NCBI RefSeq assembly: GCF_000195755.1
Contig: NC_002937.3
Location: 1,440,001 to 1,472,000 of the forward strand
DNA: 32,000 nucleotides
Direction: 5' to 3'
From: Nitratidesulfovibrio vulgaris str. Hildenborough
GTDB taxonomy: Bacteria; Desulfobacterota; Desulfovibrionia; Desulfovibrionales; Desulfovibrionaceae
The position numbers were made by a program, and so were the translations under genes. Below the pieces are notes generated by a model that did not search any database, was not told the DNA's origin, and was given only the letters and a program-made list of their open reading frames with translations. This document shows, piece after piece, positions 6,107 through 28,259 of the stretch (position 1 is the first letter of the stretch; each line of letters opens with the position of its first letter).

Positions 6107-6304
6107 TTAGGCCTGCTTGTCGTCGTTCTTGTCTTTCTTGTCGGTCGGGGTGACGTCAATCTCGTCTGGTTCCGACGCGGCCCGCTTGAAGTTACGGATG
6201 GCCCGGCCAAGCCCCCCCCCGATCTCCGGGAGCTTGTTGGCTCCGAAGACGAGCAGGACGAGGACGAGGACGACCAGCAGTTCCTGAAAACCGATACCGA
6301 ACAT
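6107..6304 (-). CDS. tatA: twin-arginine translocase subunit TatA/E
   Basis: 65 aa: [42 protein letters not shown]... This is the canonical TatA TM helix, FG hinge and amphipathic helix. It forms the C-terminal end of a spurious 654-aa track ORF. The ATG is at 6302-6304 (complement). Confidence 0.9.
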
Positions 6305-6415
6305 GGCATGCCTCCGCGTTGTGTCTTGTCGCTGGCTATACACAGCGCCCAACGACAGGTCAAGGCGACGCGGAGCAGGCAAGGCCCCCGTAACACGGGG
6401 AAACAGGAGAATCAT

Positions 6416-8038
6416 ATGCGGCGCGTTATCATAGTCGGCAGCAGTCTGGCGGCGGCCAAGGTGGCTACACGCCTGAAGCGCAAGGATCCTTCCTCCGAGG
6501 TCAACATCATCGTTCCCGCGGTGGAGTCCGGACAGGAGTCGGTGAAGGACGGTGTTTTTTACAAGGCACGGGCCGAACGGCACGCCGTCGCCGAACTTCT
6601 TCGTTCGCGTGAGGTGGGTGTGGTAGAGGCTTCGGACCTGAGTGTCGATTTCGACGCTCGCGTCGTGTTGCCCACATCCAGCCGTGGCAGCCTGCCCATC
6701 CGCTACAATGTGCTGGTGCTCGAAGTGCAGGCACAGCCGCGCATCCCCAGGGTCTTGCGCGGTGCGCCCAACGTCATCGGCTGGCCGGGTGAAGGTGCCG
6801 CTACGCTCGATGCCATGCTCTCCACCACTGCCGAGGTGCGCGTCGTCGTTGTCGGGCAGGGGCAGGCTGCCATGGAGGCCCTGCGCCTTGTGGCCCGTTC
6901 CGGACAGGTGCCCGTATGGCTGCGCCTCGGCGATGTGGGCCCCGATATCCTTGACGGTGACACGTGGCGCATGGTCGAGCGTCTGGCTGCCAACGGCGGC
7001 GTCGAAGTCCACGACTGGAGTCACGTGCCCATGGAACGCATGGGGGCGCGGCCTGACGAACACGGCGGAGTGGCTGCGCTGGTGGCTGCCCTCGAAGGCG
7101 GCAACGACCTGCGCGTGGAGGGCGATGTCTTCATCTGGACGGCGCCCACTGTCGTGCAGCATCCCGTCGTCGCGCAGGAGGGTATCACACTCGACGCCCA
7201 CGGGCGTATCGAGGTCGACGGCAACCTCGCCACCGTGGAGGAGGGCGTGTACCTCATCGGAACCGGTGTCGCCATGGCTTGTGGCTGCGGTTCGGCACCT
7301 CTCCACGTGGGTGAGCACGACCTTGCGGGGCTTGCACGCGGTCTGGCCGACCATCTCGCGGGCGACGCCACGACGACCATGCCTCCCTGCACAGGGTTGG
7401 TGCACGCCGAAGGCCCCGGCTTTGCCGTGAGCCGTGCCGGTGTCACCCTCGAAGAAGCGGTGCGCCGTGGGCTGGAGGGCGAATTCGCCCTGTTGCCCCT
7501 TGAGGATGGCGGACTGCTCAAGCTGGTGGCCGATAAGGTTTCGCGTCAGGTGATCGGGTATCAGGCCACCGGGACGGGCGAATCGCTCGACCTGCTTGCG
7601 CCTTTGCTTTCTTTCGCAGTGGGCCGTTCTGCAACGGTGGACGAGCTTGCCGCATCCGACTGCCCCGGCCCTGTGGGCACAGTCGTGCGCAAGGTGGCTG
7701 GCATTCTCGCCAACAAGATGGAAGGGCGCTTCTACGGCATCACCGCCGATGAACTGCGTGCCTCCCGCGAGGCAGGGGCCGAGTTCTTTCTGCTCGACCT
7801 GCGTGCCATGCCCGAATGGCGCAACGGCCACATTCCCGGGGCCTACAACATCCCCCTGCCGCAGCTTGCCAAGCGTTTGCAGGACGAAGTGCCGCGCTTC
7901 ACGCCCATCGTACTCGTCAGCCGGACGTCCGACGCCGCGTGGAGTGTCGCATGCAAGCTCTTCGGGCTTGGTGCCACGGCCCTCTACGTGCTCGATGGCG
8001 GCATGCGTTGCTGGGACTACGAACTGGAGACGGCGTGA
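6416..8038 (+). CDS. pyridine nucleotide-disulfide oxidoreductase-like protein with C-terminal rhodanese-homology domain (CoADR-RHD architecture, degenerate active sites)
   Basis: ATG 6416 is preceded by AGGAGA (6405-6410). Key segments are [17 protein letters not shown] (atypical dinucleotide-binding loop), [13 protein letters not shown] (second Rossmann motif), and C-terminal [24 protein letters not shown]...[12 protein letters not shown]...LDGGMRCW (rhodanese fold with Ser in place of the catalytic Cys). Confidence 0.7.
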
Positions 8039-8484
8039 CGGCGAAGGTGACGCGCCTGCCGGGAGTCGCATGTCGCTTCTGGCTGACGGGGCGTTGCGCC
8101 TACGACGAGATGCTCAACCCCGGCCTTCACGATGCGTGGCGCTGCCCTGAAGAGCAGCGGCTGCTCGGCTACTATGACGGCTTCATCGAACGGGTCGACG
8201 TGTTCGACCTGCCGCCGGAAGAGGTTGCGGGCCTGTGGGCGCGCCGTATGGAGCGTTTTCCGCCCGTGGGAGCCCTGTGCGGCAACTACGAGGCGCAGGG
8301 TGATGAAGGCGCAGATGACGCCGCGGACGGAGACCTGCCCGATGCGGAAGGCGGAATGCACGATGTTCTGGTCGATTGCATCCGCTTCCGCGACGGGATA
8401 TGCCTTTTGCTGCTGCCCCCTTGCGAGGGTGTGTGCGAACGCTTCCGACGCGCAGACACCCCCGGAGACGGGCGAAACGGATAA
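8035..8484 (+). CDS. hypothetical 8-cysteine protein
   Basis: The in-frame GTG at 8035 overlaps the upstream TGA (GTGA). The next in-frame ATG is about 25 codons downstream, inside the first Cys block (YDEMLNPG), so the overlapping GTG is preferred. Product [26 protein letters not shown]... has Cys at 13, 21, 37, 82, 115, 123, 130 and 134, plus an acidic linker. Start choice is uncertain (GTG 8047 is also possible). Confidence 0.5.
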
Positions 8485-14870: not shown

Positions 14871-14906
14871 AAAAGGCCGCGCCATCAGGCGTGGCCTTTT
14901 CTTTTG
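14871..14906 (+). terminator. rho-independent terminator of ilvC
   Basis: ggccgcgcc (14875-14883) pairs with ggcgtggcc (14888-14896), a 9-bp stem with one G-U pair and loop atca. It is followed by ttttcttttg. Confidence 0.8.
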
Positions 14907-15323
14907 TCATCCGACTTTGGCGTATGGCAGGGTGGCCACTCGTGCATCGACTGTCCTTCAACGTGCCGGGGCAAGGGGAAGGCTTGAACCTTACGCCCCG
15001 CAGAAAGGCCACGACATCTGCGGGAAGGTACGGCTGCACTATGCCCGCAGAGGGCTTCTCGACACGTCTTGTCCCTTATCGTCGGGCAAGTAAGAACAAA
15101 AGTGGGGACCGTTCACGCAGAAAGAGCACCAGCCTCTGCGGTGTGGCGGCAGCAAGGGATGCCTTCTGGCAGGCTCGATGCGGTGCATGCAGCATAGTGG
15201 TGTATCGCTCTCGAAATACTGGCATTGCCGTCAGCAGTACGGGCAATACCTGCCAGCGTCCAGATGGGAGAGACATCGCATGCCGCGGGTAAGTTGGCGG
15301 CTGTGGTCGGGACCGATGTGTGA

Positions 15324-15539
15324 TCAAGCCCCTTCAGCGACAAGACGCGCGAAGAGGTCTTCGTCTTCAGGATATTTGATGCCGTCGCCTGTGACAATCA
15401 GGCTGGGCGACAACTGGTCGGAGCGCGAGTCGTCAAGGGGCATGATTTCCCATCGTCCTTCCTGACGTCCCACGACGAGTTCGCGCTGCTGTTTGCGCGC
15501 GAGTTTGATGGCGAGTATGACCGATTCCTTGAAGACCAT
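15324..15539 (-). CDS. hypothetical small acidic protein (71 aa)
   Basis: ATG at 15539. Codon third positions are mostly G/C, as in neighbouring genes. The Shine-Dalgarno sequence is weak. Product is MVFKESVILAIKLARKQQRELVVGRQEGRWEIMPLDD...YPEDEDLFARLVAEGA. I recognise no family. It lies directly downstream of the selenoprotein gene on the same strand. Confidence 0.5.
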   Translation of the reverse strand: MVFKESVILAIKLARKQQRELVVGRQEGRWEIMPLDDSRSDQLSPSLIVTGDGIKYPEDEDLFARLVAEGA

Positions 15540-15556
15540 GCGTACTCACGAATGTC

Positions 15557-15580
15557 GCGGCCTCCCGTTGGGGAGGCCGC
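15557..15580 (-). other. perfect 10-bp GC-rich hairpin between the selenoprotein gene and the downstream small ORF
   Basis: gcggcctccc gttg gggaggccgc. There is no flanking U-tract on the minus strand, so its function is unclear (terminator, processing site or stabiliser). Confidence 0.5.
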
Positions 15581-15599
15581 GTTCTGTTGTCCGGGATAT

Positions 15600-15923
15600 C
15601 TACGAGCAGCAGCTGCTTGAGCTGCCGCATCCGCCGCAGCTTCCACCGCCGCCTGCAAGCGGCTTTCCGGGTTCGACCTGGAAACCCATGTAGGTGAGGT
15701 CGATGCGGACAGATTCAATCTGGCTCAGCAGATCGCTATTCACGCAGAAGGTGAAGTCGCCTTCCTTGAAAACATTGTCGCTCTCGTTCGGCTCATCCAG
15801 AGCCAATGCCAGCCGGGGGCCGCTTCAGCCGCCGGGGGCGAGATAGACGCGAATGGGGGTCTTCTGCTTGTCCGCAAAGTAGGCTTCAAGCTCCTTGCGG
15901 GCGTTATCAGTAAGCTCGAACAT
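15600..15923 (-). CDS. HesB/IscA-like selenoprotein (in-frame UGA = Sec at codon 33)
   Basis: ATG 15923 is preceded by GGAGG 5 nt upstream (minus strand). Translation is MFELTDNARKELEAYFADKQKTPIRVYLAPGG-[TGA, plus-strand coordinates 15825-15827]-SGPRLALALDEPNESDNVFKEGDFTFCVNSD...GGGGSCGGCGSSSSCCS. The frame is continuous across the TGA. The TGA occupies the position of the conserved Cys of the GGCSG-type IscA/HesB motif. The upstream paralog aligns on both sides of it. The track reports only the 68-aa tail (15600..15806). Confidence 0.8.
15788..15806 (-). promoter_or_regulatory. candidate bacterial SECIS stem-loop
   Basis: On the mRNA, UU-GGCUC-[UGGAU]-GAGCC-GA forms a 5-bp perfect stem plus U-G and U-A extension, with a 5-nt loop that has G at its second position. 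The loop begins 25 nt downstream of the UGA. As I recall it, that is inside the spacing window used for bacterial SECIS searches. Confidence 0.45.
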
Positions 15924-16012
15924 GCAATCCTCCACGGTTGGTATACGGAAAGCCAGAGTTAAGTGCGGCTCCCGTCTTTGTCAATGGATGAACTGCCGAG
16001 CAATCAGTTGTA

Positions 16013-16315
16013 TCAATGATTTTCAGGGGTGGCGTCTCGACGCACGGGGAAGGGGCGCTGCGGAATGACCTCAAAACCCGAGCATTTGCCCCGGATGATG
16101 ATGTCGCCGACCTGCTTCTCAAGTCTCTCGCTGATGATGAACATGTAGGGGCCACACGGGTAGTGACGGTCGTGGTCGCTGGCTTCGTCAGGGGCGAGGG
16201 CAAGGCGGGGGCCGTGGTACGACCTCGTGGAGACGTAGACGCGGATGGGGCGCACTTCGTTTTCTGTGAAGTACTCGTCGAGGATGGCCCTTGCCGATTC
16301 TTCGATGGTGATCAT
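16013..16315 (-). CDS. HesB/IscA-like paralog without Sec or Cys at the ligand position
   Basis: ATG 16315 is preceded by GGGAGAG. Product is MITIEESARAILDEYFTENEVRPIRVYVSTRSYHGPRLALAPDEASDHD... It aligns colinearly with the selenoprotein (shared PIRVY and GPRLALA blocks). Tyr33 is opposite Sec33. Confidence 0.7.
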   Translation of the reverse strand: MITIEESARAILDEYFTENEVRPIRVYVSTRSYHGPRLALAPDEASDHDRHYPCGPYMFIISERLEKQVGDIIIRGKCSGFEVIPQRPFPVRRDATPENH

Positions 16316-16460
16316 GGTTCTCTCCCTGCGGCGTTGCCGCACGTTGAACCGATAGCAGAGACCAGCCCGAATTGCCATGTGTTGCCGGGGCTTTTCCTGC
16401 TGCTTGAAAGAGGCTATCGTACAGAGTCCGTTACACTATAGTCAACACAGGTGCAGGACT

Positions 16461-26086: not shown

Positions 26087-26626
26087 CTAGCCCCCCTTGT
26101 TCAGGAGAAAGCCCTTGGTCGAGGGGCCGGTAGAGGCAGAAGTCCCGGCAATCTTGGACAGGTAGGTGTCGCCGAGCGTTCTGATGTGACCGCCGACATT
26201 GTCGAAGTAGTTGAAGTGGGCCTGCTCTTCATCGATGATGGTCTCGAAGAGCTTCATGCTCACGCTGTCGCCACATTCACGGCAGACGAGCAGGAACTGG
26301 TTGTAGGCATCGATGGTGTCGTCTTCGAGGTCTGCATCGAAGGGGAACACGATGCGTACTTCCTGCCCCTTGATGATGGCACCTTCGGGGTCGGTGGTGG
26401 GTTCGCCGCCCAGTTCCTTGATGCGTTCGGCGAACATTTCCGCGTGGCGCATCTCGTCAATGGCGATGAGCTTCACGTTGGCGGCAAGTTCTCCGTAGTC
26501 CATGCTATCGAGACCGTAGTGCTGGTTCATGTACTGTGTGATGGCGTAAAGCTCCATGGCACGTGCCTTGTTCAGCACTTCGATGACTTTCGCCTTGCGC
26601 TGTTCCCTGTCAGTGGCTGTTGTCAT
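26087..26626 (-). CDS. bfr: bacterioferritin
   Basis: ATG 26626 is preceded by GAGGAG. Product is MTTATDREQRKAKVIEVLNKARAMELYAITQYMNQHY...IDEMRHAEMFAERI...IIDEEQAHFNYF. It has the ferroxidase-centre E/H ligands and a Met at the expected haem-ligand region. Length is 179 aa. Confidence 0.9.
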   Translation of the reverse strand: MTTATDREQRKAKVIEVLNKARAMELYAITQYMNQHYGLDSMDYGELAANVKLIAIDEMRHAEMFAERIKELGGEPTTDPEGAIIKGQEVRIVFPFDADLEDDTIDAYNQFLLVCRECGDSVSMKLFETIIDEEQAHFNYFDNVGGHIRTLGDTYLSKIAGTSASTGPSTKGFLLNKGG

Positions 26627-26894
26627 TGGTCTGGCTCCTCTCGAACGCCCCGCCGAACGGGACAGTTTTGCCGTACCTTGAAGCACGGTGTTGCGTGAGA
26701 AATCCACTATAACCTAGTATTAAGATGGCAGGCCACGTGTCAAGCCATGCAGTGTTGAAATTGGAAAGTCAGAGTATAATTACCGAATTGTCCATGTTTC
26801 ATGGCTGTTGTGTATGGCAAGTGTGTAAAGATTCGTTTACGGTCGCCGATAGGATATCTGGGGGGCGTAGCGAACCATAACGCTAGGAGCGGTG

Positions 26895-27007: not shown

Positions 27008-27039
27008 TGGAGTTGCCCCCGCTAAACCGGACACCCTGC
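27008..27039. repeat. terminal inverted repeat (orfB-proximal end)
   Basis: tggagttgcccccgctaaaccggacaccctgc compared with the reverse complement of the other end, tggagtagcccccaattaggccggacctctctgcc. Of the first 13 positions, 12 are identical. A conserved ccggac block follows after a 1-nt indel. Confidence 0.75.
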
Positions 27040-27913
27040 GGTTGCTGACAGTCGGATGAATTGTCTTGGCGAGCGCATCCGTAATCCCTTGTGTGGAGCA
27101 TTTTCGTTGTAGTCTTCGAACCACTCGGAAAGGCGCTTCAGAACGCTCGGTGCGTCGGGACAGATGTTGCAGTCAACGTAATCACGCTTGAATGTCTTCA
27201 CGAATGCCTCTGCCATGCCATTGCTCTCTGGACTGCGCACCGGGGTAAAGCAGCTTCGCAGGCCTAGCCACGAGGCAAACTCCACTGTTTCCTTCGCAGT
27301 ATAACAAGATCCATTGTCTGAAAGCCATTCCACTGTATGGGACGTGTGCGCATTGCCGAATCGGCGCTCCACGCTTTCCAGCATCAGATCGCGGACCATA
27401 GAGCCTGAGATGCCCCTGGTCGTCGCAACGTAGCTGATGACTTCCCGGTCGCACGAATCGAGGACGAACGCGACACGCACGACCTCCCGGTTATCGCATG
27501 GGATCTCAAACCCATCAGAACACCATCGTGTATTGCGGTGCAGAGTAACAATCTTGCCTTCGTGCGCCTTGTCTGGACGTTTGCCGTTATGACGGGTGAG
27601 CAACAGGCCATTCATCCGCATGATGCGGTAAACGCGCTTGTGATTGACTTCAGATTGCCCTGTAGCTCTCAAATGGGCATTGAGGCACGCCTGTATCCGC
27701 CGATAGCCGTAGGTTTGCCGCTCATCAAGAATGGCACGGATGAGACGAAGCAATTCCTCATCCTGCGCCTTCACGTAACGAGGCTTTCTGGTACGATGTG
27801 GACCGTCAAGCCGCTCTGCCAAACGCGAACGGGAGACTTGCAGGGAGTCCGCTACACGCTTCATAGGGAACCGTCCTCGAATGGCAACGGCGAACGCGAG
27901 ATCAGTTTTTTTT
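27022..27913 (-). CDS. IS3-family transposase OrfB segment (DDE integrase core), expressed as an OrfAB fusion by -1 frameshift and/or from internal ATG 27864
   Basis: ...KKTDLAFAVAIRGRFPMKRVADSLQVSRSRL...YGYRRIQACLN...WCSDGFEI...WLSDNGSCYTA...PESNGMAEAFVKTFKRDYV shows the rve-domain D, D, E spacing. The frame is -1 relative to orfA. The stop at 27022 lies inside the terminal IR. Confidence 0.85.
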
Positions 27914-28259
27914 CGCGTGCAATGTCGATAGCTTCCTTCAGGATTTCGACTTCCATCGTCTTTCGGCCGAGAAGCCGTTCCAAATCCCGAATGCGCTTCT
28001 TCAAAGCCTTCGCCTCTGCCACGCTCACCACTCGGTCGTCGGCCTGAATAGCCACTTTTCCGCCATCGCTCATGAGCTTTCTCCATCGAAAGACAAGATT
28101 CGGAGCGATGCCGTATTTGCGAGCCACGAAGGAGACGCTCATTCCGGGTAAAGACGACTCTTCAACTACCCGTAGCTTCTCGGCAATGGTCCAACGACGA
28201 CGTTGAACCATGGTCACGACCTCGACCGTGGAAATCTCTTTAGCACTCTGTCTGGACAT
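27861..28259 (-). CDS. IS3-family transposase OrfA (helix-turn-helix plus leucine-zipper-like region)
   Basis: ...MVQRRRWTIAEKLRVVEESSLPGMSVSFVARKYGIAPNLVFRWRKLMSDGG...KALKKRIRDLERLLGRKTMEVEILKEA is an IS2/IS3 OrfA pattern. An alternative start is ATG 28211. The stop overlaps the orfB ATG as ATGA (27861-27864). Confidence 0.85.
   Translation of the reverse strand: MSRQSAKEISTVEVVTMVQRRRWTIAEKLRVVEESSLPGMSVSFVARKYGIAPNLVFRWRKLMSDGGKVAIQADDRVVSVAEAKALKKRIRDLERLLGRKTMEVEILKEAIDIAREKKLISRSPLPFEDGSL
27906..27913 (-). promoter_or_regulatory. programmed -1 ribosomal frameshift site (A8 run; heptamer A_AAA_AAA in the orfA frame)
   Basis: orfA codons GAA AAA AAA CTG (E K K L) occupy 27914..27903 on the minus strand. 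Slipping -1 gives AAA AAA ACT GAT CTC (K K T D L), which is exactly the orfB-frame sequence in the track ORF. Confidence 0.7.

Follow-up and report, generated by a model that had tools for sequence, protein, structure and literature searches.

A predicted IscA/HesB-like selenoprotein gene of Nitratidesulfovibrio vulgaris Hildenborough and the putative SECIS hairpin downstream of its in-frame UGA codon

A HesB-like selenoprotein was listed for Desulfovibrio vulgaris, together with SelD and three FdhA proteins that contain selenocysteine (Sec), in Table 3 of an earlier study (Zhang et al., 2006, PMC1794560), and the gene was later entered as 'HesB family, TGA, Desulfovibrio vulgaris (DVU_1382)' (Fujita et al., 2007, PMC1914089). 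The existence of the DVU_1382 selenoprotein gene is therefore already known from these catalogues of 2006-2007, and NCBIfam has a curated model for it, NF038090. Here we analysed a stretch of 32,000 nucleotides of Nitratidesulfovibrio vulgaris str. Hildenborough (NC_002937.3, positions 1,440,001 to 1,472,000), hereafter called the window, in which an initial annotation, made from the sequence alone, had pointed to a minus-strand gene interrupted by one UGA codon. We consider it very probable that this locus encodes the 107-residue IscA/HesB-like selenoprotein published as DVU_1382; it is the same gene, and nothing substantive differs between it and the DVU_1382/NF038090 entry. The initial annotation had supposed that the family was probably known, and this very gene is the one listed in both of the publications above.

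The archetype of such proteins is the family TIGR01911 (HesB_rel_seleno), found for example in Methanococcus, which shares with the window protein a small IscA/HesB fold and a UxGP motif whose Sec takes the first-ligand position. The window protein, however, falls into the separate, Desulfovibrionaceae-centred family NF038090 and has a Gly-rich tail of the form CxxC...C. UxGP was given as the motif of the HesB-like family in a 2026 review (PMC13188914), which also names the model TIGR01911, and the U-S-G-P of the window protein fits this motif. For an archaeal HesB-like protein, the presence of selenium was confirmed by 75Se labelling, according to the passage of PMC11097638 in which that work is cited. 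The carriers of iron-sulfur (Fe-S) clusters IscA, SufA and ErpA (PF01521; structures 1x0g, 1s98 and 2d2a) have the same fold, a GGCSG motif for the first ligand and further Cys ligands in a flexible C-terminal segment, whereas the window protein is a predicted selenoprotein with Sec in place of the first Cys, has CxxC-x6-C(C) rather than CxC, and is not encoded in an isc or suf operon. As to the RNA, the selenocysteine insertion sequence (SECIS) of the Escherichia coli fdhF type is, like the hairpin described below, a hairpin within the coding sequence directly 3' of the UGA, whose apical loop contains a G and lies about 20-25 nt away. The present hairpin differs in being much shorter, with an invariant core of 5 bp, a 5-nt UGGAY loop and no bulged U; it shows no sequence similarity to the fdhF type and has no Rfam model.

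The UGA codon and its orthologues

The product predicted from the minus strand (translation of 15597-15923) was MFELTDNARKELEAYFADKQKTPIRVYLAPGG-U-SGPRLALALDEP...GGGGSCGGCGSSSSCCS, with a single in-frame TGA (Table 1). The list of stop-delimited open reading frames (ORFs) held, for this locus, only a 68-amino-acid (aa) ORF with a TTG start (15600..15806), as the initial annotation had remarked; its extension of this tail through the TGA at 15825-15827 to an ATG at 15923, with a GGAGG 5 nt upstream, agreed with the sequence, and the full-length product that it gave matched our translation exactly. A frame that stays open through one TGA is not significant on its own, because the GC content is 61.5% and such a genome has many long spurious ORFs. 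As neither the frame nor the folding energy of the RNA (see below) was remarkable by itself, the case rests on homology and comparative data.

A protein database search returned 358 homologues, and residues were counted on the best 120 of them. Residue 33, at which the UGA is located, was Cys in 116 of these 120 proteins, which is the result that the initial annotation had looked for in a search with Cys substituted for Sec. Homologues that start past the TGA would have spoken against its reading; nearly all of the 120 were full length, at about 105-110 aa, and one was a truncated call of 68 aa (P0071). Two homologues (P0032 and P0086) had Trp at the Sec position, which is probably a TGA translated under another genetic code. 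The residues C33, G35, P36 and L38 were invariant; they belong to the NF038090 motif GG-[U/C]-[SG]-GP-R-L, which the window protein has in its Sec form.

We also scanned genomes, with one genome per species, and obtained 80 loci, nearly all labelled Desulfovibrionaceae, with a few records of metagenome-assembled genomes under broader labels. The genera included Nitratidesulfovibrio, Halodesulfovibrio, Oleidesulfovibrio, Mailhella, Lawsonia and Bilophila, and D. piger and others were also represented. In these loci the codon aligned to residue 33 was TGA in 62 genes, TGC in 33 and TGT in 6, where the TGA count is a lower bound, as a few more TGA genes with U-R-G-P (Bilophila type) lay outside the counting pattern. 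The peptide IRVYLAPGG-x-SGPRLALALD was kept on both sides of codon 33, and TGA and Cys copies frequently stood in tandem within one locus. Upstream of the TGA, codon positions 1 and 2 were conserved among the orthologues and position 3 was variable, and the 32 upstream codons are therefore coding sequence under purifying selection. This bore out the proposal that these codons are truly translated, as they are conserved in at least 62 TGA orthologues.

Within the window, TGA serves as the normal stop in at least 10 other genes, including pyrR, rmlD, those for DivIVA and a HAD hydrolase, and the neighbouring paralogue. A reassignment of TGA in the genetic code was rejected on this ground, and any read-through at codon 33 must therefore be specific to this gene.

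The hairpin downstream of the UGA codon

Folding of the sequence 3' of the UGA predicted a short hairpin (Table 1) at +22 to +40 from the UGA, within codons 40-46 (L-A-L-D-E-P-N). The initial annotation had placed a hairpin GGCUC-UGGAU-GAGCC 25 nt downstream; the hairpin exists, but its 5-bp stem begins 20 nt after the UGA (18 nt for the extended stem of 7 bp), and it is the loop that lies at 25 nt. The criteria of bSECISearch are a loop 16-37 nt from the UGA with a G at one of its first two bases, and the present geometry fits them. [quoted passage not shown]

We compared this region between 60 unique TGA genes (the window gene included) and 39 Cys genes with the same encoded peptide, ALALDEP. 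The five core pairs GGCUC/GAGCC (+24 to +38) were formed in all 60 TGA genes and in 2 of the 39 Cys genes, and the loop of every TGA gene was UGGAY (UGGAU in 47 and UGGAC in 13). At +24, +27, +30 and +36, the entropy of third codon positions was 0-0.12 bits in the TGA genes versus 1.1-1.9 bits in the Cys genes, and the entropy among synonymous codons at Ala41, Leu42 and Glu44 was 0-0.12 versus 0.95-1.54 bits. At the remaining third positions 3' of the UGA, the entropy was 0.75-2.0 bits in the TGA genes (0.75 at +33 in the loop, and 1.3-2.0 at most of them) and in a similar range in the Cys genes. The hairpin was thus the sole part of the downstream sequence in which synonymous sites were frozen, and this was so in TGA genes only, in line with the initial annotation's proposal of a SECIS candidate.

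The amino acids followed the same pattern. Residue 44 was Glu, encoded by GAG, in 59 of the 60 Sec genes, and residue 45 was Pro or Ser, whose YCN codon retains a G-C or G-U pair; the Cys genes had GAA, GCC and GAC, and Ala, Val or Thr, at these two residues. In one Sec gene (L015) GCU/GAG was changed to GCC/GGG, a compensatory replacement of U-A by C-G at the cost of a Glu-to-Gly substitution. A constraint of this kind fits a SelB-binding element and would not be predicted from selection on the protein or from codon bias.

Two genes of the Cys form, with TGT or TGC at codon 33 (L071:595 and L076:3094), had the whole GGCUCUGGACGAGCC hairpin at the place of the SECIS, and the sequences sister to them had TGA. 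They look like recent conversions of Sec to Cys that retain a fossil SECIS, such as has been described for the HesB-like gene of D. hafniense (PMC1794560, Fig. 4).

Several results nevertheless weigh against reading the locus as a Sec-decoding gene. Formal covariation in the stem was weak, with two pairs showing one double change each, because the stem hardly varies; the argument for a SECIS rests instead on the contrast between Sec and Cys genes at synonymous sites. Rfam returned no SECIS family and no other RNA family that was credible, either for the whole window at gathering thresholds or for 15550-16000 at E-values up to 10, and the covariance-model check suggested by the initial annotation was therefore negative. 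In single-sequence folding compared with shuffled sequences, a segment of 71 nt was unremarkable (z = -0.01) and one of 121 nt marginal (z = -2.08), and folding energies were not used as evidence. As neither selA, selB, selC or selD nor a tRNA-Sec gene was found within the 32-kb window, the evidence for a Sec machinery comes from published work on the species. A literature search for experimental work on DVU1382 found only the 2007 computational paper.

Two other accounts of the codon have to be weighed against Sec insertion. If the TGA were a genuine stop, the gene would be disrupted or split, yielding a 32-aa peptide and at most the 68-aa product from the TTG at 15806. This would match the stop-delimited ORF calls exactly and would agree with the truncated database homologue of 68 aa, as well as with two public gene calls that comprise the 32-aa fragment only and one that comprises nothing, yet a pseudogene would not keep a TGA at one aligned codon in at least 62 orthologues across many genera, with both flanks under purifying selection. 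Moreover, the supposed TTG start encodes Leu40, where the hairpin has its base, and this codon is CTG in 24 of 60 orthologues, and the match to the NF038090 profile spans the TGA; we therefore regard a genuine stop as extremely improbable. Read-through that leads to another residue, by a near-cognate Trp or Cys tRNA or by Cys that enters via the Sec pathway under selenium shortage, also appears very improbable. The Trp in two database homologues would agree with it, although this is probably the product of another genetic code, but the hairpin has the position and loop of a SelB-type SECIS and is specific to TGA genes, homologues that lack Sec here always have Cys instead, as in the classical Sec/Cys pair, and decoding of Sec in several further proteins is on record for the species (PMC1794560, PMC1914089).

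The comparative data thus indicate that Sec is inserted at codon 33 by a SelB- and SECIS-dependent route. According to the proposed mechanism, translation would start at ATG 15923 and the ribosome would reach the UGA at codon 33, where the hairpin at 15788-15806, acting as a bacterial SECIS, would recruit SelB with GTP and Sec-tRNA(Sec). Sec would then be inserted instead of termination, and translation would continue to the TAG at 15600.

Family, fold and possible function of the selenoprotein

Profile and domain searches were made with U replaced by C. On its score, the selenoprotein is a member of the curated IscA/HesB subfamily NF038090 ('IscA_HesB_Se', NCBIfam), with 113.9 bits against a curated cutoff of 85 (E = 3.6e-33), and the match covered residues 1-97 on profile positions 1-100 of 101, on both sides of the UGA. 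It also scored above the threshold of the Pfam family PF01521 (Fe-S_biosyn; 31.5 bits, cutoff 26.3). When solved structures were searched with the family profile, the IscA-type proteins 1nwb, 2apn, 1r94/1s98 and 1x0g were matched, and Sec33 aligned with the Cys of their GGCSG motif, so that the column that holds Cys in 116 of the best 120 homologues is also that of the first ligand, as the initial annotation had placed it. The tail aligned in this search with the C-terminal CGCG motif of Aquifex AQ_1857.

We modelled the structure of P0001, the closest Cys homologue, which is 79% identical to the selenoprotein. The model had a predicted local distance difference test score (pLDDT) of 83; its core exceeded 90, and from residue 93 onwards the tail was disordered (pLDDT below 50). 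Foldseek matched it to the IscA-type structures 1x0g, 1s98, 1r94 and 2d2a with a probability of 1.0 and template modelling (TM) scores of 0.6-0.7; its best structural matches were 1x0g, an IscA with a [2Fe-2S] cluster, E. coli IscA, SufA and the Cys-less DsrR. Among the homologues, C96 and the terminal Cys of the tail were invariant and C99 was at least 90% conserved, and the window protein has U33, C96, C99 and C105/C106. The initial annotation had suggested that the Gly/Ser/Cys-rich tail may supply the remaining ligands; C96, C99 and the terminal Cys, invariant or nearly so, are presumed to be these cluster ligands.

Immediately upstream of the Sec gene lies a tandem paralogue of the same subfamily (Table 1), for which the listed ORF was 16013-16378 and the real gene is probably 16013-16315. 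As the initial annotation had pointed out, it aligns on either side of the UGA, with PIRVY and GPRLALA found on the two sides of the aligned position, at which it has Tyr (...STRSYHGPRLALAPDE); it lacks a Cys-rich tail and scored 51.8 bits against NF038090, below the cutoff of 85. Its position upstream of the Sec gene was kept in Nitratidesulfovibrio loci, where Arg or Lys occurs at the site, and in L003; in Oleidesulfovibrio and Halodesulfovibrio a normal Cys paralogue fills this slot. The two genes are probably co-transcribed, to judge by the 89-nt spacer and the lack of a terminator-like site found in it. The paralogue resembles DsrR (2k4z), a Cys-less protein of the IscA fold that is among the fold matches.

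Judging by homology, the most likely activity of the selenoprotein is to bind an Fe-S cluster (or iron) through a selenolate ligand and to pass it on. The protein would adopt the fold of A-type Fe-S carriers with Sec33 in place of the first cluster-ligating Cys of GGCSG, and its flexible Gly-rich tail, CxxC...C(C), would supply the other ligands, so that the cluster or iron would be held via the selenolate.

It is also possible, though we think it unlikely, that the protein is a true selenoprotein but not an Fe-S carrier, and that it serves as a selenenylsulfide/thiol redox centre or as a site of chalcogen or metal transfer, perhaps together with the upstream Cys-less paralogue. A number of results count against an Fe-S role, and against that of a canonical carrier in particular. 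The tail CxxC (CGGC...CC, hence CxxC...C), which is on a disordered Gly-rich linker, is not the canonical CxC, and the protein scored below the cutoffs of TIGR00049 (42.6 versus 58.8 bits) and TIGR01911 (42.5 versus 66.35 bits, and thus is not a member), and far under those of the equivalog models for IscA, ErpA and SufA. No isc, suf or nif context was found around the gene, and nothing in the neighbourhood of the 80 loci tied it to Fe-S or selenium metabolism. According to a review (PMC13188914), a redox function is presumed for most prokaryotic selenoproteins that are still uncharacterised, the archaeal HesB-like selenoprotein verified by 75Se has no known function and its mutant was not impaired in nitrogen fixation (PMC11097638), and the Cys-less DsrR among the fold matches has a non-carrier role. 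On the other hand, the protein has the fold of an IscA crystallised with a [2Fe-2S] cluster, with Sec at the place of its first ligand, and the three conserved Cys/Sec positions are retained, as in A-type carriers, which favours binding and transfer of a cluster or iron. That the Sec-containing HesB protein is no conventional carrier and forms, with the Cys-less, DsrR-like paralogue, a dedicated two-gene module for redox, chalcogen or metal hand-off, or else that it is a natural carrier with a selenium-ligated Fe-S cluster, is a more speculative suggestion, which we hold to be distinctly improbable.

Neighbouring genes and public annotation of the locus

The features of the locus are collected in Table 1.

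Table 1. Coordinates of the selenoprotein gene, its parts and its neighbours in the window
Feature	Position	Strand	Basis or remark
HesB/IscA-like selenoprotein coding sequence (predicted)	15600..15923	minus	translation; 107 residues and TAG stop, Sec at residue 33
Start codon ATG	15921-15923	minus	read from sequence
Shine-Dalgarno sequence GGAGG	15929..15933	minus	5-nt spacer to ATG 15921-15923
In-frame UGA, predicted Sec codon (residue 33, motif GG-U-SGP)	15825..15827	minus	translation and aligned codons
Putative SECIS hairpin, UUGGCUC / loop UGGAU / GAGCCGA, 7 bp	15788..15806	minus	folding and Sec/Cys comparison
Hairpin core, GGCUC-UGGAU-GAGCC, 5 bp	15790-15804	minus	folding
Gly/Ser/Cys-rich C-terminal tail, residues 91-107, GGGGSCGGCGSSSSCCS	15603..15653	minus	C96-x-x-C99 and terminal Cys
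Stop codon TAG	15600-15602	minus	read from sequence
Tandem paralogue, 100 aa, same subfamily	16013..16315	minus	89-nt spacer upstream of the Sec gene; called at 100 aa in public records
GC-rich perfect 11-bp hairpin, 18 nt past the selenoprotein stop	15556..15581	minus	terminator-like; no U-tract on the gene strand
Conserved 71-aa ORF, MVFKESVILAIKLARKQQRELVVGRQEGRWEIMPL...	15324-15539	minus	downstream of the selenoprotein gene; public gene call, no Pfam match

The selenoprotein gene is flanked by ilvBNC on one side and by pyrR and a gene for a 516-aa protein with no Pfam match on the other. In 71 of the 80 loci the HesB-like cluster had pyrR as a divergently transcribed neighbour, the only one that was widely conserved, and this adjacency looks like conserved synteny with no obvious functional link. 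Other recurrent neighbours were shadow ORFs, the 71-aa ORF, which was kept in at least 14 related loci (Nitratidesulfovibrio HK-II included), and a protein of about 900 aa. The hairpin at 15556-15581 has a T-rich tail on the plus strand, and its Rfam match to HIV_FE was weak and meaningless. The intergenic segment between ilvC and the 71-aa ORF (14900-15313) could not be aligned with that of D. vulgaris BJMT01000002.1 (413 versus 383 nt), and its flanks were 98.8-99.8% identical to that record; the segment is strain-variable.

Farther away in the window, an ORF that encodes HTH_21 and rve integrase core domains (27022-28086, minus strand) looks like the transposase of an insertion sequence element, and a ferritin-like/rubrerythrin gene (26087-26707, minus strand) adjoins it. 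The plus-strand gene at 6308-8038 encodes a pyridine-nucleotide disulphide oxidoreductase fused to a rhodanese domain, and the antisense ORF at 6107-8071 is spurious save for its C-terminal end, which is a gene of the TatA/B/E family (about 6161-6295, minus strand).

The IlvC protein encoded in the window occurs unchanged in many public assemblies. A stretch of 6996 nt of the window was 100% identical to a Logan contig and 99.7% identical to CP116246.1, the sequence of Desulfovibrio vulgaris strain L2 (PMC10146906), in which the gene was called at 107 aa with a translation identical to that of the window. Among four public calls of the locus (L081-L084), this length was given once; two comprised the N-terminal ORF of 32 aa, and in one (BJMT01000002.1) no gene was called. 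The truncated ORF of 68 aa had no exact counterpart among public gene calls. The initial annotation's remark that such genes are easily mis-annotated therefore holds here, as three of the four public calls still truncate or omit the selenoprotein gene.

To what was already known of DVU_1382, this analysis adds the comparative footprint of a putative SECIS and the tandem arrangement of Sec, Cys and Cys-less paralogues. The footprint suggests that constraint on the RNA reaches the protein, in that a minimal SECIS would shape the choice of amino acids as well as that of codons. If the suggestion of a two-gene hand-off module were true, Sec33 and the flexible CxxC...CC tail would constitute a selenol/thiol redox site or a site of chalcogen or metal hand-off.

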